Of a stretch of DNA of 37,385 nucleotides, positions 2,074-37,385 are shown piece by piece (the first letter of the stretch is position 1; each line of letters opens with the position of its first letter). Below the pieces are notes generated by a model. The model was not told where the DNA came from. It did not search any database and was given only the letters and a program-made list of their open reading frames with translations. The position numbers were made by a program, and so were the translations under genes. The stretch is from an uncultured bacterium (GTDB lineage Bacteria; Patescibacteriota; Minisyncoccia; Phycocordibacterales; PALSA-1337), in contig CAINCE010000040.1 in the NCBI GenBank assembly GCA_903846945.1, positions 1 to 37,385 of the forward strand, written 5' to 3'.

Positions 2074-3405
2074 ATGATTACCCTCGGCATAGAAACATCG
2101 TGCGATGACACCGCTCTCGCAATCATAGAGACACGACAAATGACCGGAAAATCGGCTGATTTGAACGCGACTGGAAAATTAGAAGGTTTGAATGGCGTCC
2201 AAAACACCGAATGTCGCGTCATCAGCTCCCTAGTGCATTCGCAAGCTGAACTCCATAGTGCATATGGCGGTGTATACCCAAATCTAGCCAAGCGTGAACA
2301 TGGCAAGAACCTCGTACCACTCCTACATAAATTATTGGCAGACTATCCAAACACTTCGAAAACGCCCAATATCATAAGTCCAGAAAAGTTTGCGGAAATA
2401 CTTTCACATTTCAAATCAGATCTAGAAGCACAGAATCCAGATCTCTGGCTATCAATATCTGGTGCTGATTTCCTCCGATCGATTCCAGCGATAGATCGTA
2501 TCGCAGTGACTGAAGGACCAGGACTCGAACCTGCACTCTGGGTCGGCATCATATTTGCACGCGTTCTAGGGGCATTGTGGAATATCCCGATAGTGGCAGT
2601 AAATCATATGGAGGGTCACATCCTCGGTTCACTACTAGAGTCTGATAAGGCGACTGGGACTTGGCATAAACTAAAACCGCTTGAATTCCCTGCTCTAGCA
2701 CTGCTCATAAGTGGTGGGCATACGGAACTAGTGAGGATCGACGAGCAAATATATTATGTGCCCGCCTCCGATGGTGCGAATTTCAGACCGAATGATGTCG
2801 AAATGAATTCACTTGTATACACCATCCTTGGACAAACCCTAGATGACGCAGTCGGTGAAGCTTTCGACAAAGTTGCGCGACTCCTAGGACTGCCATATCC
2901 AGGAGGACCACACATTTCCAAGCTCTCCGAAGAAGCCAGTGAACTCATGACACCATCTCCAGTCAAACTACCTAGACCAATGATGAAAAGTGACAACCTC
3001 AACTTCTCCTTTTCAGGTTTGAAGACAGCTGTCCTCTATGCCGTTCGCGCTGCCGTACAACCGGATGGTCGATTGACAGATGAGTTTAAACGAGGTCTAG
3101 CGCACGAATTTGAGCTAGCAGTCACCGAAACCCTAGACTGGAAGCTACGACGCGCTATAGAGCAGATAGGGGCTAAAACGGTCATTGTAGGAGGCGGTGT
3201 TAGTGCCAATAGCATGCTCAGGGAGCGATTTACCAAGGTTGCGGAGAAATACGATATCCCCATCTATCTACCCTCTCGACATATCTCTGGTGACAACGCT
3301 CTCATGATTGCACTAGCTGGAGCTATGGATCCGTCAGAGCCATATTCAAATACTGATTCAAAACCTTTGAAAGCTGATGGAACGAAGAAGTTGGGTCGCA
3401 AGTGA
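2074..3405 (+). CDS. tsaD: tRNA N6-adenosine threonylcarbamoyltransferase TsaD, with several insertions
   Basis: LGIETSCDDT, YGGVYP, GPGL, NHMEGH, LLISGGHT, TLDDAVGEAFDK, FSFSGLKT, GGGVSAN, DNALMIA. Confidence 0.97.
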   Translation: MITLGIETSCDDTALAIIETRQMTGKSADLNATGKLEGLNGVQNTECRVISSLVHSQAELHSAYGGVYPNLAKREHGKNLVPLLHKLLADYPNTSKTPNIISPEKFAEILSHFKSDLEAQNPDLWLSISGADFLRSIPAIDRIAVTEGPGLEPALWVGIIFARVLGALWNIPIVAVNHMEGHILGSLLESDKATGTWHKLKPLEFPALALLISGGHTELVRIDEQIYYVPASDGANFRPNDVEMNSLVYTILGQTLDDAVGEAFDKVARLLGLPYPGGPHISKLSEEASELMTPSPVKLPRPMMKSDNLNFSFSGLKTAVLYAVRAAVQPDGRLTDEFKRGLAHEFELAVTETLDWKLRRAIEQIGAKTVIVGGGVSANSMLRERFTKVAEKYDIPIYLPSRHISGDNALMIALAGAMDPSEPYSNTDSKPLKADGTKKLGRK

Positions 3406-3431
3406 TTAGTGATTAGTGATCAGTGATTAGT
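3402..3431. repeat. Heptamer tandem repeat (GTGATTA)x~4
   Basis: gtgatta gtgatta gtgatca gtgatta gt; overlaps the tsaD stop codon. Confidence 0.9.
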
Positions 3432-3475: not shown

Positions 3476-3477
3476 AC

Positions 3478-3493
3478 TCCGCCAGCTGGCGGA
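3478..3493. repeat. 16-bp perfect palindrome TCCGCCAGCTGGCGGA
   Basis: Perfect palindrome; a 14/16 copy lies inside gyrB (7691-7706) and related CCGCC/GGCGG units occur near 9709-9738 and in pheT and alaS. Confidence 0.8.
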
Positions 3494-3510
3494 TCTCTGA
3501 TCTCTGTAAT

Positions 3511-6902: not shown

Positions 6903-7376
6903 ATGTCAAAAGAAAAAAAATCATTTTTTGAGAGGTTAACTGGAACAGTACGCATGGAAGAAGAAGCGGAACCAAAGCCTACAAAGAAAGGCGGTGACAA
7001 TAACGGTACTGATGTTGCCAATTGGATGGATACCGAGACCGAGCAAGACGGCGAGTTGACCATAGATGTCTACCAGACAACGGATAGTATCGTCATAAAG
7101 TCCATGATAGCTGGTGTTCGACCCGAAGACCTCGATATCTCTATCACTCGTGATATGGTCACGATCAGAGGCAAGCGCGAGGAAGAACGCATCGCACGAG
7201 ATGATGACTATTTTGCTCGCGAACTATATTGGGGATCATTTTCTCGTTCCATCTCCCTACCAGAAGAAATCGACGTCGACGAAGCAGAAGCTATGGAAAA
7301 GCACGGTCTACTCATATTGAAATTACCCAAGTTAGACAAGAAAAGGCAGTCGAAGTTGAAGGTTAGGACGGCGTAG
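6903..7376 (+). CDS. Hsp20/alpha-crystallin small heat shock protein
   Basis: IDVYQT..., AGVRPEDLDI, ELYWGSFSRSISLPEEID, GLLILKLPK. Confidence 0.93.
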   Translation: MSKEKKSFFERLTGTVRMEEEAEPKPTKKGGDNNGTDVANWMDTETEQDGELTIDVYQTTDSIVIKSMIAGVRPEDLDISITRDMVTIRGKREEERIARDDDYFARELYWGSFSRSISLPEEIDVDEAEAMEKHGLLILKLPKLDKKRQSKLKVRTA

Positions 7377-7438
7377 ACACTTTCAGCACGGAGTCAGGAA
7401 AATATCCGTGCCCCTGAATTGATTTTGCTTGCTCTGTG

Positions 7439-11826: not shown

Positions 11827-14052
11827 CTACCTCACCTCCCAACCATTCCCCTTCAATGCTTCGTAAATCGCTGTCATTATATTATTTGCTTCATCGTCGG
11901 TGAGCGTCCTCTCCATAGACTGGAATACCATGCGGTACGCGTACGAAACTCTTCCATCCTTCTTAAATGTGTCAAAGAGTGTGTGGCGTGCGAGTAATCG
12001 AATTGCACCAGCGCTCGAATCCAGATCGCTCGGAGAAACATTGCCCACCGCCAGAACTTTCACTGCGGCAATACCATCCTCAATAGTCTTCCAAACCTCC
12101 CCTGCCGTCACGGACTCCGGTACGAATACAGCGACATCACGCACGATGAATGGGTATGACGATATCTTCTGGTAAATATTCGTCGAAGCTGGTCCGAAAC
12201 CAAGGTCATCGTAAGAGGCATCCGCAGGAAGTTTGTAGGATTTCAGCAATTCATTCAGATCGATCTCGATTATTGCAATTGGTCCTTTTTCAATGATTTG
12301 ACTTTGTCCATTTAATTGTTTAATGGTCTTATTGTCTGATTGGTTAATAGTTTCTTTGTCATCCGCTCCGCCGGCCGGTGAATGGCGGATGTCAATACTC
12401 AATTGGTCAATATTCGACTGATCACTTCTCGTTCCAAGCTCTTTGCCAAGAATTTCGATCGCGCTGTCAATCAACTTCTTCCCATTTACACCCTTAACTT
12501 TCCTAACCTGTGCCGCTCCAATGGAAAGCCTGACCGACTCCCCCGCATTACTGAATACATGACCTATCTCAAATACTTTGACAGAGTCTAGTCCGAGTAG
12601 ATCTGCATTCAATATATTTTTCTCCACGCAAGTCATCATGCCGTCGACAAGGGTAGACCTTGCAAAGGCTTTGTCCCTTGCTAGCGGTTTTGCCGTCTCA
12701 ATCTCCCCCTTTGCAACGAGTGAATACAGACTAACCTCGGAATAACCCTGCCCTGTAAGGATATTTTTGATCTTTTCTGCTATATAATAGATCGACAACA
12801 CTCTGATCGTTCCTTCCGGCTTTGGTGGCAATATGCCGACGATATGTTCATAACCGTATATGCGTCCAACTTCTTCTACGATGTCGTCAGGTATTGTTAG
12901 GTCGAGACGATTGAATGGAATGGTGAGTTTCCACATTGATTTATTGTCGACTTTAAGGACTTTACTGACTTGATGGACTTGATGGACTTTACTGACTTTC
13001 GACTCGGCGCTTTCGACCACTATGCCCATACCTTCCAATATCTTCTTTGCCGTCTCAATCGGCACCTCAACTCCGAGTCTCTCATTGATATAATTCGGAT
13101 CCATCTCGATAGTTGTCCGCACAGCCTTGGTCGGATACACATCTACGATGGGACCAAACTTCGCATCAGGGATAGCTTCGAGTATGGTTTCTGACAATTC
13201 ATTCATACCTCCGAGTGCGAGCTCTGGAGTTATCTCATTTTCATATCTCTTTGAAGACTCACTACGTAAATCGTATTTCGTAGAAGTTCTGCGAACAATA
13301 GTTGGATCAAAATTGGCTGACTCAAGTATGAGTCTCTTTGTTTCGCCCGTGATCGCTGCCCTCTTACCACCCTTCACTCCCGCTATAGCGAGCGGGCCTA
13401 TGTCATCAGCGATGACATGGTCAGAATCGCTGAGTTCGATTTCCCTAGCAAGTCCTTCAGATGATTCGAGCAGGGCGATTTTCTCACCTTTCTTCGCAGC
13501 TCGAACGACGATACTACCCTGCACTTTATCTGCATCAAAAGCATGGAGAGGTTGACCGATGTCGAACATAACATAGTTTGTCGCATCGACTATTGAACTG
13601 ATCGTTCGTTGACCTATAGCGTGTAGAGCGGTGCTAACAATTATCGGAGTTTCACCTTTCGAATGTATTTCCACATATCTGCCAACATATCTCCTACAGA
13701 ATCCCTCTGCCCCAATAGTGATCGACGGCTTTTCGATCAAGTCGCCAGAAATTTCAACATTCTTCATCTCCATTCGCGGAGTTTCCGTCATCGAAAATAC
13801 TTCACCTGCAATACCTTTATGACACAATGCATAATGTGCGCGGTCAGGGAGAACTTTCAGATCATAGACGGTATCGACGACCTCGTGCGGTTTTCCATCA
13901 GCAGACTTTCCATTGATCACCGATCCGTCTATACCAATCCTTTCCATACCCTCAACTTCAAATGCATGAAAAGTGAACAACTCATCCAACTTTTCTGGAC
14001 TCGGAAGTGGCTTTGCGAAATATTGTTGTAACCAGTTATGAGATATTTTCAT
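11827..14052 (-). CDS. pheT: Phenylalanine--tRNA ligase beta subunit
   Basis: MKISHNWL, PDRAH, VDATNYVM..IGQPLHAFD, ILESANF, RLDL...DIVEEVGRIYGY, C-terminal FDX-ACB (RDVAV...RTLTD); B2 OB domain appears absent. Confidence 0.96.
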   Translation of the reverse strand: MKISHNWLQQYFAKPLPSPEKLDELFTFHAFEVEGMERIGIDGSVINGKSADGKPHEVVDTVYDLKVLPDRAHYALCHKGIAGEVFSMTETPRMEMKNVEISGDLIEKPSITIGAEGFCRRYVGRYVEIHSKGETPIIVSTALHAIGQRTISSIVDATNYVMFDIGQPLHAFDADKVQGSIVVRAAKKGEKIALLESSEGLAREIELSDSDHVIADDIGPLAIAGVKGGKRAAITGETKRLILESANFDPTIVRRTSTKYDLRSESSKRYENEITPELALGGMNELSETILEAIPDAKFGPIVDVYPTKAVRTTIEMDPNYINERLGVEVPIETAKKILEGMGIVVESAESKVSKVHQVHQVSKVLKVDNKSMWKLTIPFNRLDLTIPDDIVEEVGRIYGYEHIVGILPPKPEGTIRVLSIYYIAEKIKNILTGQGYSEVSLYSLVAKGEIETAKPLARDKAFARSTLVDGMMTCVEKNILNADLLGLDSVKVFEIGHVFSNAGESVRLSIGAAQVRKVKGVNGKKLIDSAIEILGKELGTRSDQSNIDQLSIDIRHSPAGGADDKETINQSDNKTIKQLNGQSQIIEKGPIAIIEIDLNELLKSYKLPADASYDDLGFGPASTNIYQKISSYPFIVRDVAVFVPESVTAGEVWKTIEDGIAAVKVLAVGNVSPSDLDSSAGAIRLLARHTLFDTFKKDGRVSYAYRMVFQSMERTLTDDEANNIMTAIYEALKGNGWEVR

Positions 14053-14087: not shown

Positions 14088-14861
14088 TTAAAACTGATTT
14101 ATCAGTCGGATATCGCCAGTATACAGATGTCTGATATCATCAATGCCAAATTTGAGCATCGCTATCCTATCTGGACTGACACCAAAAGCAAAACCTTGGT
14201 ACACCTCTGGATCGATACCGACAGCCTTGAAGACATTTGGATGTACGAGGCCAGCTCCACCCATCTCGAGCCATTTACCTTTCCATTGCATATCAACCTC
14301 CAGACTCGGTTCAGTAAATGGGAAAAAGCTCGGTCGGAAACGGATGACAACATCGTTGCCAAACACTCGCTTGAACATCGCTTCGAGAACTCCCTTCAGT
14401 TGCGCCAAGGTCACATTTTTATCGATATATAATGCTTCGAGCTGATTAAACTGCGCTTCATGTGTCGCATCAGTTGCTTCATTTCTATAGACCCTTCCTG
14501 GCACGAGTATTCTCAAAGGTGGTTTATTGTTCTCCATGTATCTGATCTGGACGGAAGATGTATGAGTGCGCAATACCATTCGCTCGCCTTTTTCTGGGTG
14601 ATTAATTGAGGCATTTGAATTTAGAATTTGTTTAGAATTTAGGATTTCGGATTTCGGATTTGAATTTGACTTTATCCAAAAAGTATCCTGCATATCTCTA
14701 GCTGGATGATCTTTCGGCACATTCAATGCATCAAAGTTGTGGAATTCATCTTCGAGCTCTGGCCCATCAGCTATCTCGAAACCAAGTTCTTGGAACACTG
14801 GGTATATAGCTCGAATGATCTGCGTTATGGGATGTAGATGGCCTTTCTGGTCCGGTTTCAT
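14088..14861 (-). CDS. pheS: Phenylalanine--tRNA ligase alpha subunit (short form)
   Basis: GHLHP, NFDALN.P.DHPARDMQDTF, LRTHTS, FRPSFFPFTEPS, GFAFG. Confidence 0.97.
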   Translation of the reverse strand: MKPDQKGHLHPITQIIRAIYPVFQELGFEIADGPELEDEFHNFDALNVPKDHPARDMQDTFWIKSNSNPKSEILNSKQILNSNASINHPEKGERMVLRTHTSSVQIRYMENNKPPLRILVPGRVYRNEATDATHEAQFNQLEALYIDKNVTLAQLKGVLEAMFKRVFGNDVVIRFRPSFFPFTEPSLEVDMQWKGKWLEMGGAGLVHPNVFKAVGIDPEVYQGFAFGVSPDRIAMLKFGIDDIRHLYTGDIRLINQF

Positions 14862-14896
14862 ATGAGTATAACTGTAGCAGGAAAACTTTCCATTAT

Positions 14897-14926
14897 CCAG
14901 TATCTAGCCTCTAGTCTCTAGTATCT
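14897..14926. repeat. Degenerate heptamer repeat (TCTAGNN)
   Basis: ccagta tctagcc tctagtc tctagta tct. Confidence 0.6.
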
Positions 14927-16727: not shown

Positions 16728-19700
16728 TTAATACTCGAATGCTCCCCTCGTCCATGTCGTACGAGCTCTGCCACGTGCATCATATCCATACTCTGAACCG
16801 AGAGTTGCTCCGGCAGTCGTGTTTCCGGTCAATGCATAATTCTTCGTCGTCCAATCGATAAATGGTGAAGTATTCGCTGATATCACCACGTCTCCAGTAC
16901 CAGAAGGGGTATTTGTTGTGTAGATATATTCATTATGATGTTCGCCCCCTGAGGCTACCGAACTGACAGTCGCATTTGCACTATATGCAAGATTATTTAC
17001 AAAAGTATTGCCAGACCCAGAGTCAACGCCGGCAAGTCCACCACCCGGCTGTGGTTTCCCGAGTGCCGAATTCAAGAATGTATTGTTGTAAATATATGAG
17101 TTAGATATTGCAGCAAGCCCGCTGGCGACCTGGCCATTTCCACCGATAATAGCGCGTCCTGTCCAACCTTGATCAAAGACATTTCCGTAAATCTTGGAAT
17201 TAGTTATTTGCGACCCGTTAGCTGATATCACTTCGCTCAACCCTCCATCACCATATGTTCCATAGAAGAGAGAATATCTAACAATGAGATTGGTCGCTGG
17301 CGACCAGAGAGCATTGATAGGATTTCCATGGAAGTTATACGTCTGCGACGTATACATCTGCTCATAAACATTGTATTCCCACGTCACATTACTCCAAGTA
17401 CTCCTTCCTGCCATCACCAATGCTTGGCCCCAACCATAGAAGTAACTATGTGAGATTGTTAGATTACTAACTGACTCGTTGGTGTAACCTGCACTATATT
17501 CAGCAAAGAAGTGTCCGCCACCAGCAGTATTCGGAACGGTTACGTCCGTGGCTGCATACACATGTGATATCGATATATTTGTAAGTTGCAAACCATCGCC
17601 TGTAGTGCCGACATTGAACACGGCATATCGATTAGTAAAATTGATACCATAATCTGCACCATTGTTGTCAGGTGGCAAAACACTGAAGCCCGCACCCTTC
17701 TGACCATCGATCGTCCAGTATGAGGTGTTTACATCAAATCCGTCGATATTGGCTTGTCCTGTACCCATAGTAGTTTGATTCCAACCTATATCCGTTCCGT
17801 GACCTGATTGACCTGTTGCTCCTATAGCTTTCACAATGGAAATAGTTTGTGTGCCGTTTGCTGGAGTATCCAATGTTTTTCGTCCATAGGTTCCATCAGC
17901 TAAGTAGTATGTGGTTCCAGATGTTCCACGGCTGAAGGTTGGCCACCCAGCATATGCATTGCTCCAATCAGATCCATTCTTCAATCCGGCACCTGACGGA
18001 GTGATGTAATAGCAAGTACCAGTACAACCACTAGTTCCACCTCCACTCAATGTAAATGTCGCTGAGATCGCATGATTTGTCACTACATTGGAAAACGTAT
18101 AACTAGTCACTGCTCCCACTGATACCCCATCAACTGTGACAGAGGACACTTGATAGCCTCCAGCTGGTGTGATGGTGTATGTCTGTGATTTACCAGAATT
18201 AACTGTAGTTACTCCGACTGGAGAGATGGTGCCGTTCGAGCCCGCCGTGGCTGTGATGCTGTAGGTGACTGGCGCTAGGGTGCTGCCTGTGTATTCGTAG
18301 GCGCCGATGTCCCAGGCAGAGCCTTGAGGACGAGTGGTACCAATTATATCCTTTGCGAAGAATGTGGCATCCGGCGAATAGCCAGCATCGATTGTACCAC
18401 CAGTTGAAATAGTCGGAATCCAAAGACTGGCTTGCGTGTATCCTTGTCCGCTGGCCACCGACAGCGTCTGAACTAAATTATTCTTTCTCGTATAGCCCGC
18501 CGACGGGCCGTTGTCGTCAGTATAAACACTAGTACCGATAACATGATTATTTTCAATAACTATACTTGACGGTTGTGGAGAACCTGCGCGATTAACTACA
18601 TGGACTAGAGGTGTATTCGACAAAATATACGCTGTATTATTAAATATCTTGTATACACCACTTGTTTGATTTGCACCATAGTCATACGGATCTATCTCAA
18701 TAGCACCCTGGGAACTGATTTGCCCATAAAATATGTTATTGTATGCGTATAGAGTTGCACCACGACCATTCAAGTAAGCCATGTTCGCTCCATAATTTAC
18801 GTCATGAAATATTGAGTTACGAATGTACCCAACATTTGCACCCATGGTCATCGCGTCTAAATATACTCCATTAGTATGATAGTTTGGATCAAAACCACCA
18901 TTGGGGTTACTAATGTTATACATAGTATTATGATCATAATCTAGTGTAAATAGAACCGCACTACTATTGTCATGTAGGATACTATTTTTTATAGAACCAA
19001 CCGCTCTTACCATCACTCCATTCCATCTGCTAGAGTTTTCAGCATTTGATATTTCACAATTATCTATTAAATCCGTTGACTGATTTGATGCTGTTGAAGT
19101 GAAAATGACTCCCCCATGTGCACCATCAGATGAAGCTGTTGTTTTCCATCCATGGAGATAGCAGTTGCTAATAGTGATGTACGATGGGGAACCGCCGGAT
19201 ATGAGACCCGTCCCATCAATTGAACCTGTACTTACATGACTCAACTCAAGCCCATCTATCGTTATGTATGATAAACTTCCGAGTGAAAAAATGCTACTAA
19301 CCAGATAGTTTCCATCGAACACCGGCTTTACCCAACTCGTCCCTGTGTACCATGTTTGATCAACTCCATAGTAATCTCTAACAGTATCTGAACTACCGCT
19401 ATATGCTACGGTCAATGGTAGAGCTGCAGCCGGCCACGTAACCCCTCCCTTGAAGATGAACTTGTCTCCTGCTTGGTGTGTGTATGAACCTGTAAATCCG
19501 ACCATGCCAGGAGCTAGTTTCCATGGAGTAGACTTGGATGTTCCGTTGTTAGCATTAGAGCCTGTTGCGTAGTCTATATAGAAGCAACGTCCAGTACAGG
19601 ACGAGACTGAAATAGTAACCGTCACATTAGCACTCTTTGATAGAGAGACATTCCCCGCAGCATCCTTAGCCCAAGCATAGAGAGTGTAGGTACCGTTAGC

Positions 19701-22700
19701 AGAGACTGTGTAGGAGGTGGGAGCAGTAGATGTCCAGCCAGAAGCAGATGATGTAGGGGCTGTAGCTGTGGTAGTTACCATGTAGCCTGTTACATTTATG
19801 TTGTCTGTGGCTGTGAAGGTAGTTATGGGAACAGTTAGAGAGCTAGAGGTTGAGGGAATAGTGAAAGTGGTGACTGTAGGGGCCTGAGTGTCACCTCCTT
19901 GTGTGCCGGTGTATTCGTAAGCACCGATGTCCCAGACACCACCTGTTCCACGAGTGATACCGTCCATATCAGTGCTATAGAGACTAGCAAGTGTGGTTCC
20001 TGAAGTTGTCGGAGCTGCTAGATGGAAATCCCTGCTAGCAAAGCTCTTAAAGACAGAAGTTGTCGTTGTGAGATTCGTTGCTTGTGTTATACCGCTTCCT
20101 CCATTTTCAAAATATATTCCACCAGTATTTACGGAGATATTGTTCTTGATATCTATCCCACTGGTACTCGAATTAGCCATAACCCTAACTGATGCTTGAG
20201 GTAGATCAACAAAGGTATTGTTGTAGATCTTTATGTTCGTAAATGGCGCCGCCGAGCCACTATCTGCCTCACGGAATTCTACCCCGCGGGCACTGCCGAT
20301 ACCATCATAGAATAGGTTTCCGTATATTTCGACACCAGTGTGAGACATTCCCGGTGCCCAACCCAAGAAGATACCTTCGGCTGAGAAGTTATGAGACACA
20401 TTGTAACGGAAGATTGCGTAGGAACTCCCCAACCACCATATATTGTCATGATTGCCCGCATTTGAACTACTAAGATCGGCAAATTCAGAATACTCGACAG
20501 TCATATAATCATTGCCACCAGTGTTGCTATCCTGTATAGCCGTGGCCATTCCATGAAAATAGCAGTGACTAACTAACATATGAGATGTGTTACCTGCCGC
20601 ACTGTTAGCATTGATCCACATACCCAAGGTGTCTGGTGTAGTTAAGTAAGGATATGCACTAGCTCCTGCAGGTCCTGCTATCTCCATATACTTAAAACTA
20701 TTGTATGGGTGATTGCCGCTGGCCCAATAATTAATGCCTATGGAACCATTACCAAAAACAACCTTAATGCCCGCGTTATGTGTTGCTGTTGCACTGTATC
20801 CGTTGAAGTCGTAGTAGCCACTATTGCCGCTAGATGCTGGTTGGAACGAAAGTGATGAAAAGACTGCTTGTCCAACTCCATATGATGATACCCAACCGGC
20901 ACCATTGCCATGATCAGCGTCTGTTGCCTTCTTGATATAGATGTATGTTGATCCACTGGCATTATCTGCAAAGGTATGCGCACCGTATGAACCATCGGCC
21001 AGATAGTAGGTCGTTCCGCGTGTTAATGTTCCCGGTAAGTTTCCTGCCGCATTGCTCCAACTCGAACCATTTCCTGAGGATCCCGAACGGATGTAGTAGC
21101 AAGTCGTAGTAGGACACGCGCCTCCAGCAACAACCGCACTAAACGTCGCCGTAATCGTATGATTGGCTATAACATTGGAGAAGATGTATGAGGTCACTGC
21201 TCCCACTGATACCCCATCAACTGTGACAGAGGACACTTGATAGCCTCCAGCTGGTGTGATGGTGTATGTCTGTGATTTACCAGAATTAACTGTAGTTACT
21301 CCGACTGGAGAGATGGTGCCGTTTGAACCTGCTGTGGCGGTCAAAGTGTAAGTGGTAGGAGAAACGGAGCCGGTGTATTCGTAGGCACCTCTAGTCATAG
21401 TCGTTCTAGCAGCACCCGTTGGATCCGTAGTTGGAGCGCCTGCTACGATTCCGGCAGCAGTATTAGCCACTAGAGTAAAGTCTTCGTTAGTTATGTCTTT
21501 GAATGGATTTGTTGTACCAGTTGTTGCCCCTGTTTGAGAAGGCACCGTATATGGCTTTCCAGGGTAATAACCAACGAAGTGGTTATAACCTTGAGAATCA
21601 AACATTTGAGGATTGATTCCAGAAGAGTTGTAGAATATATTGTTGTACGCCACATTTCCTGTAGACCTATCTCCAATCAAGCCAAATACGTTAAGAATGC
21701 CGATAAAACTATTGTTGTAAACCTTGAAGTTTGAATTTTGTCTATTCGTCCATCCTCCAACAGCTCCGTCAGATCCTTGCCAACCTGTATTTCCGTTAGT
21801 AAAGACGTTACCATATATTTTGAAACTATCTCCGCCTAACATTAGACCTCCTGTGCTTTCCATCCATGTGAATATGGAATTTGCGAAGGTTATATTATTT
21901 ACCGCAACTCCTCCAGCCGGTCCTCCATTAACCAACAAACCTTGCCATATTGAAGCAAGTTCAGTATGTACGCTTGAATCTATTGCACTTGCTCTCCCAA
22001 ATTTTCCTCCATATAGATACTCTACGAACAAATTACTAGAAGAAACTCTGAAAAGGCAATTACCCATGTCGTGGAAGTAAGCATACCTCACAGTGAGATC
22101 ACTGGCATTTGGCCAAGTCTCGACCGCATGATTATATACTGAAGGTAAACCCCAATATCCAGCAATCTCTATATGAGCAAAATTGAAATGATTCAATCCA
22201 TCCACTCCTAGCAAGATACCTGAGCCTGAACTTGAAGTAGTTACATTGATCTTGAATCCAAATGGAGTCGACGCTCCTTTCCAGTTTCCATGTCCTCCAC
22301 CTGTAACCCCGTCAATATTCCAATAGTTTGTGGTGAACGAGAGAGTACCACTAAACGTCGCCTGATTTCCGTATGAAGCCTGCCATCCGGAAACGCTTCC
22401 TGAATTGGCTTGAGTTGCCTTAACTATGTTTACGTATGTTGTAGCAGATGGAGCTGTATTGAATGTCTTTCCTGAATATGATCCGCCTGCAATGTAGTAT
22501 GTAGCTCCACGAGCGAAGTTCGTGTTCCAACTTGCAGCATCAGTCCATGACGTTCCCCCTCCTGTTCCGTTTGGAGTGATATATCTGCATGTTCCAGTAC
22601 AACCTGCTCCTATAATGTTAGAAGTAAAGACTGCCGTTATGGTACCAGCCGCGGAAATTACAGCAGATTTGGTACAAGTCGTTGCATTTAGGGCGCATGT

Positions 22701-24617
22701 TGCTGCAATTCCGTTAACATCGAGTCCTGTAACAGTCGAATTAGAAGCTGCTGTAGCAGTCACTGTAACATTCGTCCCAGAAGGAATCGATGAGCATGAT
22801 ATCGCTCCACACGTGACTGTTCCTGAACCTGTTCCCAAGATTGTGGTGGTTAGAGCGAAATTTGGACTTGAACCCACCGTCACCGTCGCATTCACCACCG
22901 CCGACGTCACACCTGTTGCATTTGAACACGAGATACCATACGTTGTCGTTTGAGTGAGGTTTCCTGTTGATACTGAACCTGATATGGCCTTAGCACCTGC
23001 AAACGTTCCTCCTGTAGCTGTACAAGCTGTGGCGTTGGTTGAGACCCACGTCAGTGTCGAAGGTGATCCTGATGTCACAGAGGTTGGGTTAGCAGAGAGA
23101 GTAGCGGTTGGAGGTGGGGTGACTGTAGATTGTGTCGTCGCAGAGACAGATGATGATTGTAGAGATTCATTGTTTGCTGTATCTCTAGCAGATACAGTGT
23201 AGGAGTAGGTAGTGTTAGGGGTAAGATTAGTGTTCTGGAAGGTAGTACCTGTAATGTTAGGGTCATAGGAGACACCGTTCTTGTAGAGGGTGTACTTCAC
23301 TGTTCCACCAGAATTGTCTGTAGAAGGATTCCATGAGAGGTTAATCTGTGTAGAAGAGACAGCTGTAGCAGTTAGGTTTGTTGGTCTGGTTGGAGCTTGT
23401 GTGTCTGTCGAAGCAGGAGGGATGACGATAGGGACTGTCTTGTAGACGTATGTGCCTGTGATATTAGGAAGCTGGGTAGTATAACAGCCTAGTTGGACAT
23501 ATCCTGTGGTACCCATTCTGTCACCAAGTACTCCTAGGGTAGATGGAACGGTAACAGTGATGCTGTCGTTAGCACCTTTGACTATGCCTAAGGTGGAACC
23601 AAAGATCTTCTGGAGGAAGTTGTTTCCAATAGCTTCGATATTACAGCTCACGATGCCGCCAGAGGTTGTCCAAGTTAGGACGACTGTCTGTGAGCGTTGT
23701 GATGGTGTAGGGGTGGCAGTGAAAGAGGTGATGGCGGGAGTAGCTGATTGTGAGGTGGTGAACTGTTGAGCGATGGTTCCTGTCTGGTTCGATGCGGTAG
23801 ATCTGACCTGGAAGTAGTAGTGGGTGTTAGGTATGAGACCTGTGAGGGTTACAGAGTGAGAGGTGGAGAGAGTTGGGTCTAGAGTAGTATTACTGCCGAA
23901 TGATTGTATCAGACCATAGTAGACCTGTGTGTCAGATGGGATATTGGTTGTCCAGGTGATAGTGGCACCAGTAGAGGAGACTGTGTGGACGGAGACGCCG
24001 GAGACTTGAGGTGGGTAGGTTGGAGCTGGAGGGGTGGAAGGGGTGGTGGTGACGTTGAGGGTCGCATATATAGCTGCGTGACCCGTACCTCCTGTAGATG
24101 ATGGGAAGGTGGCTGGCATGGTTCCATATGTAAATGAAGCAGATTTGTAGGAACCAGAGGTACTCCATGGGAAGTACAGGTTGTTAGAGTTGGTGAGGTA
24201 TGTAAGCCAGTAGGTACCAGCTGTGAGAGATCTGGCGGTTACAGGAGAAGTGTTCCAACCAGATACTGGTGTAATCTCGTTGGTTTCAGCTACTTTGGCA
24301 CCACTAGTATCATATATACCTAGTCGAAGCTTGCCAGAAGGAGTAGTGACGTAGAAAGAGAGGCTCTGTACGGTAGCAGTCTGCCCGAGAGTAAATTGTT
24401 GACCTATGAGGTGGTTAGCATCACCGTGGTCATCTTGCTGAGTTAAGTTAGTACTGGTCTCACCCATGGTGACTGACTGGGTTACCTGTGCCACCTGTGT
24501 TTGTGGTGGTACTGTAGCTATGTTAGTAACTGGGTTTTGAGTAATGATGACAGAGAGTAGTGCTCCTACACCTATGACCGCTGCAAAGAGTGCTAGGGCT
24601 ATTTGGTTGGGTTTCAT
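16728..24617 (-). CDS. Giant (2629 aa) surface protein: N-terminal anchor, FN3/Ig/PKD-like stalk, InlB-B-like repeats and four right-handed beta-helix modules
   Basis: Hydrophobic N-terminus; FN3 patterns (LTGLIPNTHYYFQV, LTPNTTYSYTVSA); four ~400-aa Asn/Gly-rich modules starting CxxxC[RYF]YI and ending GA[YF]EY. Confidence 0.9.
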   Translation of the reverse strand: MKPNQIALALFAAVIGVGALLSVIITQNPVTNIATVPPQTQVAQVTQSVTMGETSTNLTQQDDHGDANHLIGQQFTLGQTATVQSLSFYVTTPSGKLRLGIYDTSGAKVAETNEITPVSGWNTSPVTARSLTAGTYWLTYLTNSNNLYFPWSTSGSYKSASFTYGTMPATFPSSTGGTGHAAIYATLNVTTTPSTPPAPTYPPQVSGVSVHTVSSTGATITWTTNIPSDTQVYYGLIQSFGSNTTLDPTLSTSHSVTLTGLIPNTHYYFQVRSTASNQTGTIAQQFTTSQSATPAITSFTATPTPSQRSQTVVLTWTTSGGIVSCNIEAIGNNFLQKIFGSTLGIVKGANDSITVTVPSTLGVLGDRMGTTGYVQLGCYTTQLPNITGTYVYKTVPIVIPPASTDTQAPTRPTNLTATAVSSTQINLSWNPSTDNSGGTVKYTLYKNGVSYDPNITGTTFQNTNLTPNTTYSYTVSARDTANNESLQSSSVSATTQSTVTPPPTATLSANPTSVTSGSPSTLTWVSTNATACTATGGTFAGAKAISGSVSTGNLTQTTTYGISCSNATGVTSAVVNATVTVGSSPNFALTTTILGTGSGTVTCGAISCSSIPSGTNVTVTATAASNSTVTGLDVNGIAATCALNATTCTKSAVISAAGTITAVFTSNIIGAGCTGTCRYITPNGTGGGTSWTDAASWNTNFARGATYYIAGGSYSGKTFNTAPSATTYVNIVKATQANSGSVSGWQASYGNQATFSGTLSFTTNYWNIDGVTGGGHGNWKGASTPFGFKINVTTSSSGSGILLGVDGLNHFNFAHIEIAGYWGLPSVYNHAVETWPNASDLTVRYAYFHDMGNCLFRVSSSNLFVEYLYGGKFGRASAIDSSVHTELASIWQGLLVNGGPAGGVAVNNITFANSIFTWMESTGGLMLGGDSFKIYGNVFTNGNTGWQGSDGAVGGWTNRQNSNFKVYNNSFIGILNVFGLIGDRSTGNVAYNNIFYNSSGINPQMFDSQGYNHFVGYYPGKPYTVPSQTGATTGTTNPFKDITNEDFTLVANTAAGIVAGAPTTDPTGAARTTMTRGAYEYTGSVSPTTYTLTATAGSNGTISPVGVTTVNSGKSQTYTITPAGGYQVSSVTVDGVSVGAVTSYIFSNVIANHTITATFSAVVAGGACPTTTCYYIRSGSSGNGSSWSNAAGNLPGTLTRGTTYYLADGSYGAHTFADNASGSTYIYIKKATDADHGNGAGWVSSYGVGQAVFSSLSFQPASSGNSGYYDFNGYSATATHNAGIKVVFGNGSIGINYWASGNHPYNSFKYMEIAGPAGASAYPYLTTPDTLGMWINANSAAGNTSHMLVSHCYFHGMATAIQDSNTGGNDYMTVEYSEFADLSSSNAGNHDNIWWLGSSYAIFRYNVSHNFSAEGIFLGWAPGMSHTGVEIYGNLFYDGIGSARGVEFREADSGSAAPFTNIKIYNNTFVDLPQASVRVMANSSTSGIDIKNNISVNTGGIYFENGGSGITQATNLTTTTSVFKSFASRDFHLAAPTTSGTTLASLYSTDMDGITRGTGGVWDIGAYEYTGTQGGDTQAPTVTTFTIPSTSSSLTVPITTFTATDNINVTGYMVTTTATAPTSSASGWTSTAPTSYTVSANGTYTLYAWAKDAAGNVSLSKSANVTVTISVSSCTGRCFYIDYATGSNANNGTSKSTPWKLAPGMVGFTGSYTHQAGDKFIFKGGVTWPAAALPLTVAYSGSSDTVRDYYGVDQTWYTGTSWVKPVFDGNYLVSSIFSLGSLSYITIDGLELSHVSTGSIDGTGLISGGSPSYITISNCYLHGWKTTASSDGAHGGVIFTSTASNQSTDLIDNCEISNAENSSRWNGVMVRAVGSIKNSILHDNSSAVLFTLDYDHNTMYNISNPNGGFDPNYHTNGVYLDAMTMGANVGYIRNSIFHDVNYGANMAYLNGRGATLYAYNNIFYGQISSQGAIEIDPYDYGANQTSGVYKIFNNTAYILSNTPLVHVVNRAGSPQPSSIVIENNHVIGTSVYTDDNGPSAGYTRKNNLVQTLSVASGQGYTQASLWIPTISTGGTIDAGYSPDATFFAKDIIGTTRPQGSAWDIGAYEYTGSTLAPVTYSITATAGSNGTISPVGVTTVNSGKSQTYTITPAGGYQVSSVTVDGVSVGAVTSYTFSNVVTNHAISATFTLSGGGTSGCTGTCYYITPSGAGLKNGSDWSNAYAGWPTFSRGTSGTTYYLADGTYGRKTLDTPANGTQTISIVKAIGATGQSGHGTDIGWNQTTMGTGQANIDGFDVNTSYWTIDGQKGAGFSVLPPDNNGADYGINFTNRYAVFNVGTTGDGLQLTNISISHVYAATDVTVPNTAGGGHFFAEYSAGYTNESVSNLTISHSYFYGWGQALVMAGRSTWSNVTWEYNVYEQMYTSQTYNFHGNPINALWSPATNLIVRYSLFYGTYGDGGLSEVISANGSQITNSKIYGNVFDQGWTGRAIIGGNGQVASGLAAISNSYIYNNTFLNSALGKPQPGGGLAGVDSGSGNTFVNNLAYSANATVSSVASGGEHHNEYIYTTNTPSGTGDVVISANTSPFIDWTTKNYALTGNTTAGATLGSEYGYDARGRARTTWTRGAFEY
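18106..18236. repeat. 131-bp identical direct repeat, copy 1
   Basis: Identical by eye to 21193-21323; encodes NGTISPVGVTTVNSGKSQTYTITPAGGYQVSSVTVDGVSVGAVT. Confidence 0.92.
21193..21323. repeat. 131-bp identical direct repeat, copy 2
   Basis: Identical by eye to 18106-18236. Confidence 0.92.
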
Positions 24618-25354: not shown

Positions 25355-25363
25355 TGTTATGAG

Positions 25364-25473
25364 TTAAAAGTCTGTAAAGTCCTTAAAGTCTTAAAGTGGT
25401 GATTTGAGTGATAAATGACATTTGTTTGATTTATGGACTTTATAAACTTTATAGACTTTCGACTTTATGGACT
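25364..25473. repeat. Inverted array of 9-mer repeats (TAAAGTCNN / GACTTTATN)
   Basis: aaagtc units on the left arm; gactttata/gactttc/gactttatg units on the right arm. Confidence 0.85.
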
Positions 25474-25816
25474 ATTCCTTGATTGATAAATTCTGCATTC
25501 TTTTGTCACGCAACCTATTGTCTGGCAACATCCTGTAGATCGCTCTGCGAAATACTTCACCAAAACCGCGTCGTGCTATGAGTGCGGCCAATGTCTCACT
25601 ATTTAATCCTCCACGGTGACCTGTATAAGTGACATAGACATCCTTGATCTTCTTCTCCGCAGAAATATCCGCCATCGCGACATTGGAAATCTCTACTTTC
25701 GTATCTGCGATTTTGTTCTTCGCAAAAGTTGGTGAATTCTTACCCATGAGAACAGAAGCTGCTTCACTAGCAACTCTTCCCAACTTTCTTCCTTGTGCAT
25801 CGATCTTGTAATTCAT
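25472..25816 (-). CDS. rplM: 50S ribosomal protein L13 (short form)
   Basis: IDAQGRKLGRVAS..A..LMGK, TGHRGGL, AIYRMLP.N.LR. Confidence 0.96.
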   Translation of the reverse strand: MNYKIDAQGRKLGRVASEAASVLMGKNSPTFAKNKIADTKVEISNVAMADISAEKKIKDVYVTYTGHRGGLNSETLAALIARRGFGEVFRRAIYRMLPDNRLRDKRMQNLSIKE

Positions 25817-25845
25817 ATTTATGCTGATTTTTATTAATGGAATTA

Positions 25846-25913
25846 TGATATATGAGATATGAAATATGATTTTTTAATTGATCTTATATCTTATTTCATA
25901 TTTCCTATCTCAT
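25846..25913. repeat. Inverted array of heptamers (ATATGAN / NTCATAT)
   Basis: ttatgat atatgag atatgaa atatga ... tcttata tcttatt tcatatt tcctatc tcat. Confidence 0.8.
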
Positions 25914-26264
25914 CTAAACAAACTCGATAATAGCCATCGCCGCACCATCTAGGACGCGATTGGGCATTTTGATAATCCTAGTGTATCCTCCTGCGCGTTT
26001 CATGTACTTGGGAGCAAGGACATCGAAAAGTTTCTTTGTCTCATCACTACCCTGTATACGAGCATTGACTATGCGTCTACCTGCTACCGTACCAGACTTT
26101 GCAGAAGTAATCAATTTCTCCACAAAAGGACGAACTTCCTTGGCCTTCGCTAGAGTCGTGCGCATCTTGTCATCACGAATGAGGTTGCGCGCCAAAGAAC
26201 GCATGAGAGCATGTCTCTGTGTCTTTTCTCTGCCGAATTTTCTTGTGTTTGAATGGTGTCTCAT
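25914..26264 (-). CDS. rplQ: 50S ribosomal protein L17
   Basis: MRH...RKFGR, TTLAKAKEVR..VEKLIT, R.GGYTRIIK. Confidence 0.98.
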   Translation of the reverse strand: MRHHSNTRKFGREKTQRHALMRSLARNLIRDDKMRTTLAKAKEVRPFVEKLITSAKSGTVAGRRIVNARIQGSDETKKLFDVLAPKYMKRAGGYTRIIKMPNRVLDGAAMAIIEFV

Positions 26265-26269
26265 ATTAG

Positions 26270-26326
26270 TTAAGTCCTTAAAGTCTGAAAGTTTTTAAAG
26301 TCCCTACTTTATGGACTTTCGACTTT
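26270..26326. repeat. Inverted array of AAGTC/GACTTT repeats
   Basis: taagtcct taagtctg aaagtttt taaagtcc ... actttatg gactttc gacttt. Confidence 0.75.
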
Positions 26327-27319
26327 CTACTGTTTTAGTGTAATCCCATGTTGTGCCAATAATTTCTTTATCTCTTGCATTCCCTTTGCTCCCAATCCAT
26401 CAACATCCATGATGTCTGACTCTTTCTTTCGAGCTAGACCTCCTAGAGTGCGGATATTTGCAGCGGTCAAGGCTTTGGCTGTTCGAGCAGAGAATCCGAG
26501 TGAATCGATGCGAGTCTTTAGGAGTTCTGTATCAACTCCCTTTAACATATCAACCGCGACACCCTCTTTCTCAGTCGCGTCCTCTTTCTTGCCCTTGGTT
26601 ACGGCGACTTCTTCTTCAGTAACTTCCTCTTCCTTGAATCCGATGATGGCCTTTAGCTGTGTGATCATGAGAGCGATAGACTTCTCGAGTGCTTCATGAG
26701 GGGTGATAGTACCATCTGTCTCGATAGAGAGACGAAGTCTATTGAAATCTGTTCTGTCACCGACGCGCATATTTTCAACCTCATAGTTAGCTTTCCTTAT
26801 AGGTGTGAAAGCAGCGTCCAATGTGATGGCTCCGATCTCTACACGATCTTTCTGGATGACTTGTTTAGAAACATATCCTAGACCTCTCTCTGCAACCATC
26901 TCTATAGAGATCTCAGCATTCTTGTCGGTGAGTGATGCGATATGTAGATCTGGATTCAATACTTCTGCCTGTCCAGGTACCTCGATATCCTTGGCTGTAA
27001 CATCCTTTATGCCCTTCACCTTCAATGTGAGAGTTTGTGGCTCATCTGTATCTATGCGAATGCGAATCTTCTTTAGGGCTAGCAATATAGCGACAACATC
27101 CTCTTTTACTCCATCGATAGTGGAAAATTCATGTTCCACTCCAGTGATCTTAACTTTGGTGATAGCAGCACCTGGCAATGAAGAGAGGATGATGCGACGC
27201 AATGAATTACCTAAAGTATGCCCATAACCTGGATACAAACCGTCTATCTCATAGACACCACTAGTAGCGTCTTCGCGGATGACTTTTGGTTTTGAAGGTA
27301 AAACAACGTCGTATGTCAT
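26327..27319 (-). CDS. rpoA: RNA polymerase alpha subunit
   Basis: GYGHTLGNSLRRIILSSLPGAA, HEFSTIDGVKEDV, VENMRVG.RTDF, alpha-CTD. Confidence 0.99.
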   Translation of the reverse strand: MTYDVVLPSKPKVIREDATSGVYEIDGLYPGYGHTLGNSLRRIILSSLPGAAITKVKITGVEHEFSTIDGVKEDVVAILLALKKIRIRIDTDEPQTLTLKVKGIKDVTAKDIEVPGQAEVLNPDLHIASLTDKNAEISIEMVAERGLGYVSKQVIQKDRVEIGAITLDAAFTPIRKANYEVENMRVGDRTDFNRLRLSIETDGTITPHEALEKSIALMITQLKAIIGFKEEEVTEEEVAVTKGKKEDATEKEGVAVDMLKGVDTELLKTRIDSLGFSARTAKALTAANIRTLGGLARKKESDIMDVDGLGAKGMQEIKKLLAQHGITLKQ

Positions 27320-27376
27320 AGTTTTTATATTATTATTAAATAAGAGGATTAATTATACATTAAAATCACCAAATGT

Positions 27377-27982
27377 CTAGCGTGTGTAGAACTCTAGAAC
27401 TTGGCGAACATCGAAGAGTAGTTCCGTCATATCTGTGACCGGAATACCATCTACTGTGATCTCACGCTTTTCTGCGTCTACTTTGACCCAAGCTGGGACC
27501 TTCGTTGTCTTTATTTCCTCGTCGAGCTTGGCAAAAATAACCTTGTTCTTGCTACCTTCGCGGATAGCGATCTTGTCCCCTATCTTTACTTGGAGTGAGG
27601 GGATCGTGATCTTCTTTCCATTCACAGTGATATGACCATGTGACACCATCTGCCTGGCTGCCGATCGGGTTGGTGCAAATCCTGCACGAACCATGACGTT
27701 ATCGATGCGTCCTTCTAGGAGCTGCATGAGGTTCTTCGCATTGTCTCCCGTAGACTTCAGTGCTTGCTTCACATAATTTGTGAACTGCTTGCCTCCGACA
27801 CCGTAGCTAAAGCGTGCTTTCTGCTTTTCCATCATCTGACGACCATATTCACTCTTTACACCACGACGACGCACGGTCTTTACCTTGCGTTGTGCGCGCA
27901 TAGCATACTTCTGAGTCTGCGTCTTTCGGAAGATTGGCGCTCCTAGGTATCTTGCTTTTTTGTATCGTGGTCCTATTTTCAT
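27377..27982 (-). CDS. rpsD: 30S ribosomal protein S4
   Basis: SEYG.QM.EKQK, LE.R.DN...R.GFA.TR..ARQMVSHGH; Cys-free form. Confidence 0.98.
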   Translation of the reverse strand: MKIGPRYKKARYLGAPIFRKTQTQKYAMRAQRKVKTVRRRGVKSEYGRQMMEKQKARFSYGVGGKQFTNYVKQALKSTGDNAKNLMQLLEGRIDNVMVRAGFAPTRSAARQMVSHGHITVNGKKITIPSLQVKIGDKIAIREGSKNKVIFAKLDEEIKTTKVPAWVKVDAEKREITVDGIPVTDMTELLFDVRQVLEFYTR

Positions 27983-27993
27983 GTTATTTGAAT

Positions 27994-28073
27994 AGATTTA
28001 TGATTTAAGATTTATGATTTAAGATTCATCGCATTTTTTTCTTCGTAAATCCTAAATCGTAAATCTTAAATCT
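27994..28073. repeat. Inverted array of heptamers (GATTTAW / TAAATCN)
   Basis: gatttat gatttaa gatttat gatttaa gatt ... taaatcc taaatcg taaatct taaatct. Confidence 0.9.
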
Positions 28074-28078
28074 TGTGA

Positions 28079-28510
28079 TTAGACGCGGCGTGGTTTCTTT
28101 GGTTGTGGGCCGTTAAATGGAATAGGGGTTTCATCCTTGATGGATGTAATCATGATACCCTTCGAGACGAATCCTCGAATAGCTGACTCGCGACCTGAGC
28201 CAACACCTTTCACAACTACATCAACTTCCTTAAGGCCGATATTTGCTGCCTTTAGAGCGAGTGTCTCACCAACCTTGGCTGCTGCAAATGGAGTACCTTT
28301 CTTTGCACCACGGAATCCTGCCGCACCTGATGACCCCCACATGAGTGCATTGCCTGACTTGTCTGTTAGCATCACCTTTGTATTGTTATAGGTAGATTGA
28401 ACATGCAAAATACCAGCGTCAACGCGCTTTTTTGAGGACACCATCTGCGACTTCGACTTATCATCGGTTGATTTCGCTCCTTCAGTTGTTGTAATTCGTT
28501 TTTTTCCCAT
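28079..28510 (-). CDS. rpsK: 30S ribosomal protein S11
   Basis: STYNNT, GFRGAKKGTPFAA, G.GSGRESAIR, D.TPIPFNG; ATG at 28510 (MGKKR). Confidence 0.97.
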   Translation of the reverse strand: MGKKRITTTEGAKSTDDKSKSQMVSSKKRVDAGILHVQSTYNNTKVMLTDKSGNALMWGSSGAAGFRGAKKGTPFAAAKVGETLALKAANIGLKEVDVVVKGVGSGRESAIRGFVSKGIMITSIKDETPIPFNGPQPKKPRRV

Positions 28511-28542
28511 TGTTTTAATCTTATTTTTGCGTTTCACTTTTT

Positions 28543-28600
28543 GACTTTATGGACTTTCCGGACTTTATAGACTTTATGGACTTTATGGACTTTCCGACTT
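28543..28600. repeat. Tandem 9-mer repeat (GACTTTATG)x~6
   Basis: gactttatg gactttccg gactttata gactttatg gactttatg gactttcc gactt. Confidence 0.9.
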
Positions 28601-28981
28601 CTATGTCTTCTCCTCCTTTCGTCTTCCAGATCCCATAGTCTTTCTGACATTACCCCTAACTGTACGGGAATTGGTTTTTGTTCTCTGACCTCGAGCTGGG
28701 AGGTGTCTAGCATGTCTGCTACCCCTGTACGCCTTGATATCTTTCAATCTCTTGATATTTCCAGCAACTTCACGGCGGAGATCTCCTTCTATCTTGTGAC
28801 CCTCCACGAGCTTTCGAACAGCATTCTCCTGCTCTACTGTGAGATCTTTTGGCTTCATACTAACAGCTACATTGGCCTGCTTCAAAACTTTGAGTGCTCG
28901 TGAACGACCAACACCATATATCGCCGTTAGGGCGATCTCCATTCTTTTGTTATCGGGTAGTGTTATTCCTAGGATTCTCAT
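28601..28981 (-). CDS. rpsM: 30S ribosomal protein S13
   Basis: ALTAIYGVG, EGDLRR, YRGSRH...LP.RGQRTKTN.RT. Confidence 0.98.
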   Translation of the reverse strand: MRILGITLPDNKRMEIALTAIYGVGRSRALKVLKQANVAVSMKPKDLTVEQENAVRKLVEGHKIEGDLRREVAGNIKRLKDIKAYRGSRHARHLPARGQRTKTNSRTVRGNVRKTMGSGRRKEEKT

Positions 28982-28996
28982 TGATATAATTGATTT

Positions 28997-29113
28997 CTAA
29001 CCTTGCCTCTGTTTATGCCTTGGGTTCGACTTGCAAACTACATAAACATATGACCCTCGACGAACGACGGTGCATTTCGGACATATTTTTCTGACGGCTG
29101 CTTTGACTCTCAT
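28997..29113 (-). CDS. rpmJ: 50S ribosomal protein L36 (not in the ORF track)
   Basis: Manual translation [38 protein letters not shown], zinc-ribbon form; lies between infA and rpsM. Confidence 0.97.
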
Positions 29114-29119
29114 TGTAAT

Positions 29120-29191
29120 TTAGTGATTAGTTGCTAGTGACTAGTGATTAGTTATGCGTTTACTGGTCACTAATCACTAACCCCTAACCAC
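29120..29191. repeat. Inverted array of heptamers (TAGTGAY / RTCACTA)
   Basis: tagtgat tagttgc tagtgac tagtgat tagt ... gtcacta atcacta accccta accact; same family as 3402-3431 and related to the terminal array. Confidence 0.88.
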
Positions 29192-29210
29192 TTTATCAAT
29201 ACTCTAAATA

Positions 29211-37296: not shown

Positions 37297-37385
<89 letters not shown>

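Follow-up and report, generated by a model that had tools for sequence, protein, structure and literature searches.

Among the short repeats found between bacterial genes, MITEs (miniature inverted-repeat transposable elements) and repetitive extragenic palindromic (REP) sequences are short non-autonomous inverted-repeat elements of intergenic DNA, and the short tandemly repeated repetitive (STRR) sequences of cyanobacteria are a heptamer-repeat class comparable to the runs known from Xanthomonas and Nostoc. Here we analyze tandem-repeat hairpins that lie between the ribosomal-protein genes of an uncultured bacterium of the Patescibacteriota, on a contig of 37,385 nucleotides (CAINCE010000040.1 of assembly GCA_903846945.1; this whole stretch is called the window below), and relate them to cassettes that encode a four-helix-bundle protein of the 23S rRNA intervening sequence (IVS) family.

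The closest described systems are the rRNA IVSs and the heptameric repeats. In the IVS in helix 45 of Coxiella burnetii, the consulted sections of PMC4990558 describe a stem with tandem GACAGAT heptamers, variable in number and located upstream of the S23p gene, and cleavage by RNase III at the first repeat in vitro. For the 16S and 23S rRNAs of the Candidate Phyla Radiation, scattered inserts bearing an intervening-sequence protein (IVP) gene and short inserts without an open reading frame (ORF) are described, with repeats unmentioned in the sections consulted (bioRxiv 10.1101/2024.02.27.582315). The heptameric repeats of Xanthomonas (GGGAATC) and Nostoc are intergenic degenerate runs, mostly of four units, those of Xanthomonas often standing as facing inverted pairs (70 cases in one genome), and the sections consulted report no association with mobile elements (PMC4692102).

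The present locus shares with the ORF-bearing rRNA IVSs (S23p / 23S_rRNA_IVP), as those sections describe them, the stem-loop, the terminal inverted repeats and the tandem stem heptamers that vary in copy number; the full form encodes the same protein family, ORF-less short forms exist, and sister copies of the operon hairpins lie in 23S rRNA in this genome. Unlike the IVSs, the operon copies are gene-less and occupy mRNA spacers, not an rRNA helix, and relatives of these copies lie inside coding frames. About 200 arms per genome, a dozen unit families that include 8-9-mers, and a unit tied to the protein clade are likewise features that the consulted passages of the rRNA IVS papers do not describe. 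We consider it probable that the operon-spacer hairpins are gene-less (empty) derivatives of an IVS-type four-helix-bundle cassette.

Repeat hairpins in the spacers of the infA-rpsI operon

The operon infA-rpmJ-rpsM-rpsK-rpsD-rpoA-rplQ-rplM-rpsI lies on the window's minus strand, with gene names backed by NCBIfam. An earlier note, made from the letters of the window, had described repeat arrays in six of its eight spacers, five as inverted arms and the one between rpsK and rpsM as a single arm, and this was confirmed by Tandem Repeats Finder (TRF), an inverted-repeat search and a motif search. Five spacers carry two inverted arms of 3-5 degenerate units each, one carries a single arm, and two are without arrays (Table 1). 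TRF and the inverted-repeat search located the arms other than the rplQ/rpoA pair, which both missed and which was seen in the sequence and recovered by the motif search. The paired arms are the terminal inverted repeats of stem-loops with loops of 2-45 nt. When the mRNA strand was folded and compared with 200 shuffles, the five two-armed spacers gave z values of -3.1 to -9.0, in agreement with the long hairpins between cistrons that the note had proposed; the solo-arm spacer gave 0.0 and the two array-free spacers showed no folding. A search of the window against Rfam gave no match, the spacers held no terminator-like site, for which a terminator role was rejected, and promoter-like sites were not in excess over the operon region as a whole.

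The arrays are not assembly artefacts, a concern the note had raised, because three of the hairpins recur, with no or few differences, within contigs assembled from other samples, which is evidence at the level of contigs. The rplM/rplQ and rpmJ/infA hairpins are covered with 0 differences by contigs of run X3, which shares its study with the possible source run; for the rpsI/rplM hairpin, contigs of X5 and X6, from two other studies, show a few differences. In the rplM/rplQ spacer, positions 25825-25866, one whole 42-nt arm (6 x 7) flanked by 8-nt direct repeats, are missing from a related strain's contig; this is a single contig, and the difference may be a gain or a loss.

Four-helix-bundle cassettes share three of the operon units

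The genome assembly comprises 980,515 bases on 77 contigs and is 94% complete; its genes were called by the simple ORF model of this analysis. It holds three genes of TIGR02436 (PF05635, the 23S-IVS protein family), and each of the three stands between inverted arms, built of GATTTAN, ATATGAN and AAAGTC 9-mer units respectively; these are among the four units found in the operon. The loops of the operon-spacer hairpins contain no PF05635/TIGR02436 gene, such genes being confined to these three same-unit cassettes on other contigs. Since the spacer repeats bracket the cassette genes in three of their four types, the hairpins are likely empty copies of a selfish cassette. Two suggestions of the earlier note, that the arrays might be scars of a small mobile element and that four-helix-bundle/IVS genes deserved attention, thus gained support, and it was right that no responsible enzyme is visible in the window.

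The gene that shares the arms is a four-helix bundle and not a known transposase. Including this genome and its relatives, 24 of 28 cassettes have significant inverted arms. A unit similar to the fourth operon unit, TAGTGRY, flanks a cassette in the relative G027, in a comparison of loci from which L051 and L057 are left out. When cassette arms were ranked by how well they match this genome's arrays, its own came 2nd, 4th and 5th of 29; rank 1 was taken by the arms of a sister protein with the same unit at another site.

Homologues of the cassette protein come mostly from Patescibacteria records, which together with the 1-Mb genome suggests a bacterium of the Candidate Phyla Radiation. Their flanks keep the unit. 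At least four AAAGT cores accompany 64 of 73 homologues of the C28 protein (52/60 after dereplication) and 1 of 80 homologues of the C45 protein, whereas at least five GATT cores accompany 15 of the 21 C45 homologues at >=64% identity, 4 of the 59 below that and none of the C28 set (0/73). The genes downstream are mostly different (43 clusters of 59; 16 of 20), so that the unit is retained with the protein clade across 54-97% identity and many sites. These counts and the covariation analysis below leave out seven loci (L264, L267-L272). In the L193 cassette, with 97% protein identity to C28, the downstream arrays are much shorter and a different neighbour follows past the same arm end. In the loop that follows NIAEG, a motif of the protein, two residues vary together with the unit. 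The sole clear solved homologue, PDB 2GSC (Xanthomonas XCC0516), has five chains.

Other candidate partners were examined. The GxxExxY family (TIGR04256), which the note had also named, is absent from the genome. One Y1-type transposase domain is present, and the array nearest to it is about 0.8 kb away. Unlike REP elements and their associated transposases, the units are not palindromes and do not cluster around the Y1 gene. The cassette protein has a remote relative in the Avd protein of diversity-generating retroelements (DGRs; NF033474), with an E of 8e-5 that falls far short of the cut-off. Six weak Avd-like matches and four reverse-transcriptase (RT) loci, which together lie on C73, C70, C57, C46, C39 and C16, suggest several DGRs in a 1-Mb genome; by eye, the six Avd-like matches have no inverted arms, unlike the cassettes. 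RT count did not correlate with array density over 40 genomes (rho 0.16, p 0.31): no RT was found in the array-bearing G002 and G003, and G007 and G020 have four RTs each and almost no arrays. Reverse transcriptase was accordingly rejected as the partner.

Cassettes and spacers in related genomes

Of the 51 operon-region arrays in relatives, 20 resemble a cassette present in the same genome, where permutation gives 11.5 (p=0.003), and array density follows cassette count with a rho of 0.50 over 40 genomes that are not independent (G015 is left out of this correlation). A series of decay stages is seen in G014, which has a full cassette and, at a different site just after rpsI, an internally deleted copy with both gene ends kept around the deletion. 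The upstream arms of the two copies are identical over 47/47 nt; the gene parts have diverged (74% column identity overall). There are 43 arm matches in G014, of which most of those examined are gene-less pairs, and its arms form a more homogeneous family, a fixed compound sequence of about 45 nt with ordered variants.

The operon spacers themselves turn over rapidly. The rpmJ/infA spacer measures <=16 nt in 16 and the rpsI/rplM spacer <=12 nt in 11 of the 20 congeners, and those congeners that do have spacer hairpins (G002, G010, G014, G021, G022) mostly use other units, so that neither position nor structure is conserved. Because the same spacers are mostly short or carry other units, the hairpins are not conserved operon regulators, and the note's proposal of processing or stoichiometry signals, taken as an evolved function, was not supported. 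By eye, AAAGT-type relics occur at rplQ/rpoA in 5 of 20 congeners and may mark an older insert or a recurrent target, and the rpoA/rpsD spacer is conserved and array-free in all 21 genomes (this one and 20/20 congeners). In the rpsK/rpsD spacer of G021 (L075) a REP-like GC-rich palindrome is nested in the loop of a heptamer hairpin.

Arms in ribosomal RNA

Four AAAGTC hairpins lie inside the 23S rRNA of this genome. Three are placed at helix tips, at model positions ~165, ~282 and ~583, the last of which we take to be helix 25, a known IVS site. A full cassette lies within the 16S rRNA of the relative G018. Further arm hairpins occur on C63 upstream of the 23S rRNA and in the 23S-5S spacer (L081:1905-1984, 6517-6860, 7330-7420). 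The genome has an RNase III gene; an AGAGCT-family hairpin just upstream of it (C9:4641-4728) could by chance act like an autoregulatory stem.

Genome-wide anatomy of the arms

A genome-wide scan of the kind the note had suggested returned 115 period-7 and 57 period-9 arrays in 818 intergenic stretches, where 20 shuffles gave means of 0.3 and 0.4; periods 5, 6, 10 and 11 gave 0-4 arrays only. In this abundance of intergenic tandem 7-mers far above chance the arrays resemble heptameric long simple sequence repeats. Unlike the Xanthomonas and Nostoc heptamers, as the consulted sections of PMC4692102 present them, the units are AT-rich and not G-quadruplex-forming, and the arms are tied to four-helix-bundle genes. 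A motif-based caller found 225 arms in 12 families, as defined in this analysis, the largest being AAAGTC (74/225) and GATTTA (49/225). Four units make up 118 of the 225 arms, 23 arms lie inside called genes, and the longest perfect runs reach 37 units.

Facing arms keep an order that is fixed for each family: among adjacent pairs, 56 have one orientation and 2 the reverse, the two deviating pairs being junctions of two tandem elements, and three mixed-family pairs follow the same polarity. A search independent of folding gave 61 hairpins with a median stem of 30 bp and a median loop of 26 nt. Their loops (8-90 nt) are unrelated in sequence apart from CGCA, which is present in 24 of 61 (6.2 in shuffles) and not enriched in ordinary spacers (16/185 vs 20.7). 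In relatives' loops it occurs in 6 of 18 (1.5 expected), and in distant loci, with the same seven loci left out, its occurrence is not significant (2/11). Nested arms of other families lie in loops at C39:924 and C71:2475 of this genome.

GATTTAN leaves its seventh position free; there, the units that face each other carry the same match in 16% of 74 pairs, and chance alone would give 29%. Neighbouring units of short arrays are identical at a rate of 0.34 (0.28 by chance) for GATTTAN and 0.17 (0.10) for the 9-mer, and identity of neighbours by descent was seen only in a few long runs. Since the arms are not mirror copies and their neighbouring units stand near chance, simple slippage and fold-back copying do not explain them; fold-back copying of one arm was rejected by this mirror test. 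In GATTTAN hairpins the variant with T at position 7, which creates an ATG, is rare in the upstream mRNA arm (3/56 vs 14/61, p 0.008), perhaps through selection against upstream start codons.

Arm clusters are one-sided in 105 of 159 cases. The outer end of solo arms lies near a gene end (median 9.5 vs 55 nt; 46/62), and these arms favour neither strand (20 vs 19). Among core-operon spacers 6 of 8 carry arms, and among other co-directional spacers 73 of 444 (16%); in this count the rpsM/infA gap was taken as one spacer, rpmJ having been missed by the gene caller. Occupancy of the other co-directional spacers rises with a codon-adaptation proxy (7, 14, 20 and 32 per 111). On C2 (1378-1740; L084:479-841) a YerC/YecD (TrpR-like) gene has heptamer runs on both sides, which may be a matched pair.

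Other arrays and genes of the window

Side arrays that the note had placed at 3402, 14897 and 37297 were recovered by TRF (at 3401, 14894 and 37297); that at 9647 is only a weak degenerate run which TRF did not find. Its list was also incomplete, the arms inside pheT and pheS having been overlooked. The run at the contig end is likely a slippage-expanded arm. The stretch 3401-3506, which lies between convergent genes, comprises a GC-rich terminator-like hairpin with the TAGTGAT arm on one side and a short GATCTCT run, opposite in polarity, on the other. TsaD (2074-3405), of 443 aa, aligns with its model in three segments, from which inserts of about 100 residues are implied, and directly downstream of rpsI on the minus strand lies an ORF of 2629 aa (16728-24617).

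Table 1. Repeat arms and related features of the operon spacers, the cassettes and the rest of the window.
Feature	Position	Strand	Remarks
rpsI/rplM left arm	25362..25397	+	AAAGTC-core 7-9-mer units (TRF, inverted-repeat search)
rpsI/rplM right inverted arm	25430..25473	-	outer end overlaps rplM stop codon; spacer fold z -5.2
rplM/rplQ left arm	25840..25870	+	ATATGAN heptamers (TRF, inverted-repeat search); 25825-25866 missing in a related strain's contig
rplM/rplQ right arm	25881..25916	-	adjoins rplQ stop codon; spacer fold z -3.9
rplQ/rpoA left arm	26272..26302	+	AAAGTC-core units (sequence, motif search)
rplQ/rpoA right arm	26305..26329	-	2-nt loop; outer end within rpoA stop codon; fold z -3.1
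rpoA/rpsD spacer	27320..27379	-	without array; promoter-like TAGACA-16-TATAAT; internal control
rpsD/rpsK left arm	27994..28026	+	GATTTAN heptamers (TRF, inverted-repeat search)
rpsD/rpsK right arm	28043..28074	-	TGCG in loop (CGCA on opposite strand); fold z -8.3
rpsK/rpsM solo AAAGTC 9-mer arm	28536..28605	-	begins at rpsM stop codon, then ACGCA, without partner arm; fold z 0.0
rpmJ/infA left arm	29120..29152	+	TAGTGRY heptamers (TRF, inverted-repeat search)
rpmJ/infA right arm	29162..29192	-	ACGCA in loop on mRNA strand; fold z -9.0
Cassette	C45		GATTTAN arms
Cassette	C7		ATATGAN arms
Cassette	C28		AAAGTC 9-mer arms
Solo TAGTGAT arm	3401..3431	+	at tsaD stop codon
AAAGTC arm	12949..12999	-	within open frame of pheT
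Degenerate heptamer run	14613..14673	+	within open frame of pheS
Solo TRGAKAC arm	14889..14926	-	between mrdA-like gene and pheS
Perfect (TAGCCAC)12.7 run	37297..37385	-	contig end (TRF)

Origin and spread of the hairpins

The derivation of the operon hairpins from the cassette is supported by their anatomy, by the match of units between spacers and cassettes, by a unit tied to the protein clade at many unrelated sites and by the fixed polarity, and further by the presence of the element in 23S rRNA, the deleted cassette of G014, the fast turnover of the spacers and the enrichment beside genes of ribosomal-type codon usage. A number of observations weigh against it. No cassette of this genome, which is 94% complete, carries the fourth operon unit, TAGTGRY, or the units of several other families, and 31 of the 51 operon-region arrays in relatives match no cassette of their own genome. 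Four cassette-bearing genomes have no array in the sampled region, and 9 of 20 cassette-free genomes have at least one (4 of these two or more). By eye, the loops of the empty hairpins of this genome hold no recognisable gene relics, and for this reason descent from a cassette by deletion is shown only in G014. Flanking direct repeats or target-site duplications are not in excess (9/61 hairpins vs 6.5 expected), the codon-adaptation proxy may reflect either expression or long residence of the genes, and the covariation of protein loop and unit gives only one independent pair on supported tree branches, so that a residue code for the unit is a lead only. To our knowledge no catalytic activity is known for this protein family, and searches limited to the Y1, RT, GIY-YIG and GxxExxY families, among which GIY-YIG also gave hits, identified no partner enzyme.

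As to how the arms spread, it is quite possible, and we propose it tentatively, that the oligomeric protein recognises its own unit array and, with host enzymes, spreads arms near CGCA-like sites. The oligomer would recognise about 4-5 units (compare the five chains of PDB 2GSC) and, together with host repair or recombination enzymes, would carry arms in cis and in trans into transcribed DNA. Recombination among the ~200 arms would then mix units, and deletion or slippage would yield solo and long arms. By analogy with rRNA IVSs, the chances seem even that RNase III cuts the RNA stems; such cutting would make rRNA inserts tolerable and would split polycistronic mRNA incidentally, without being a signal under selection.

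The main competing explanation is one-sided synthesis: a telomerase-like or terminal-addition activity would make each arm de novo, separately from its partner, where DNA is broken or a gene ends, with the four-helix-bundle protein setting the unit and the cassette merely one product. It would account for arms that are not mirror copies, for the many one-sided clusters ending close to genes, for the polarity kept in the mixed-family pairs, for CGCA as the only feature common to loops here and in relatives, for the missing excess of target duplications and for a strain difference of 42 nt, six times seven. We nevertheless judge it unlikely: RT count does not track the arrays, with G002, G003, G007 and G020 as cases in point, CGCA is not significant in distant loci, and the fixed compound arm of G014 with its ordered variants is more readily explained if a defined end was copied than if units were added one by one. 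Less probable again is that the host has selected the hairpins as signals for mRNA processing or stoichiometry in the ribosomal-protein operon. Their strong folding, the high occupancy of the operon and of spacers beside genes of ribosomal-type codon usage, the RNase III gene and the rplQ/rpoA relics of congeners would suit such signals, but the homologous spacers of congeners are mostly very short or occupied by other units, pairing of the arms at the variable unit position does not exceed chance, one arm is missing from a related strain, an RNA stem needs no fixed polarity, and Rfam gave no match.

Microsatellites grown by replication slippage and inverted by fold-back (template-switch) events, with the four-helix-bundle genes hitch-hiking, are a very improbable source. 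The long perfect runs, as at 37297, and the one-arm strain difference between 8-nt direct repeats would suit slippage, yet neighbouring units are identical hardly above chance and facing units do not mirror each other, copy number peaks at four, polarity is strict, and the unit is conserved with the protein clade at many sites. As an origin slippage is thus largely refuted, and it persists as a secondary process. That the hairpins are classical MITEs or REP elements moved by a transposase is barely credible. Terminal inverted arms, short length, many copies and the single Y1-type domain recall such elements, but unlike them the arms are tandem arrays, the loops are unrelated in sequence and length with no conserved interior found, the units belong to a dozen unrelated families, target duplications are not in excess, and no link to a transposase was found in the families searched, the Y1 gene lying well apart from the nearest array.

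Implications

We found no description of this class in the literature, in a survey of partial coverage; the heptamers of the Coxiella IVS are the one printed precedent found. The data of this analysis were used to test how protein clade and unit are coupled, with a 9-mer clade among those covered, whether arms mirror each other (they do not), the CGCA motif of the loops, the gradient with the expression proxy and RT as a partner, the last with a negative outcome. The derivation from a cassette ties two puzzles, the unexplained heptamer repeats and a functionless 23S-IVS protein family, to one element. It also cautions against taking every long hairpin of a ribosomal-protein operon for a regulator, and it shows that, even where the genome is only 1 Mb, rRNA and the frames of core genes gain repeat DNA.

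A bolder idea, which we regard as doubtful, is that oligomers of four-helix-bundle (IVP/Avd-like) proteins read 7-9-base units in a sequence-specific manner, that part of this specificity comes from the post-NIAEG loop, and that these oligomers drive a transposase-free mobile DNA by seeding arms in trans into highly transcribed, CGCA-bearing sites. The genome offers three protein-unit pairs on which it bears, two with heptamers and one with a 9-mer. If true, it would explain the function of a large orphan family together with the excess of heptamer repeats in bacteria, and would amount to a programmable protein-repeat code.

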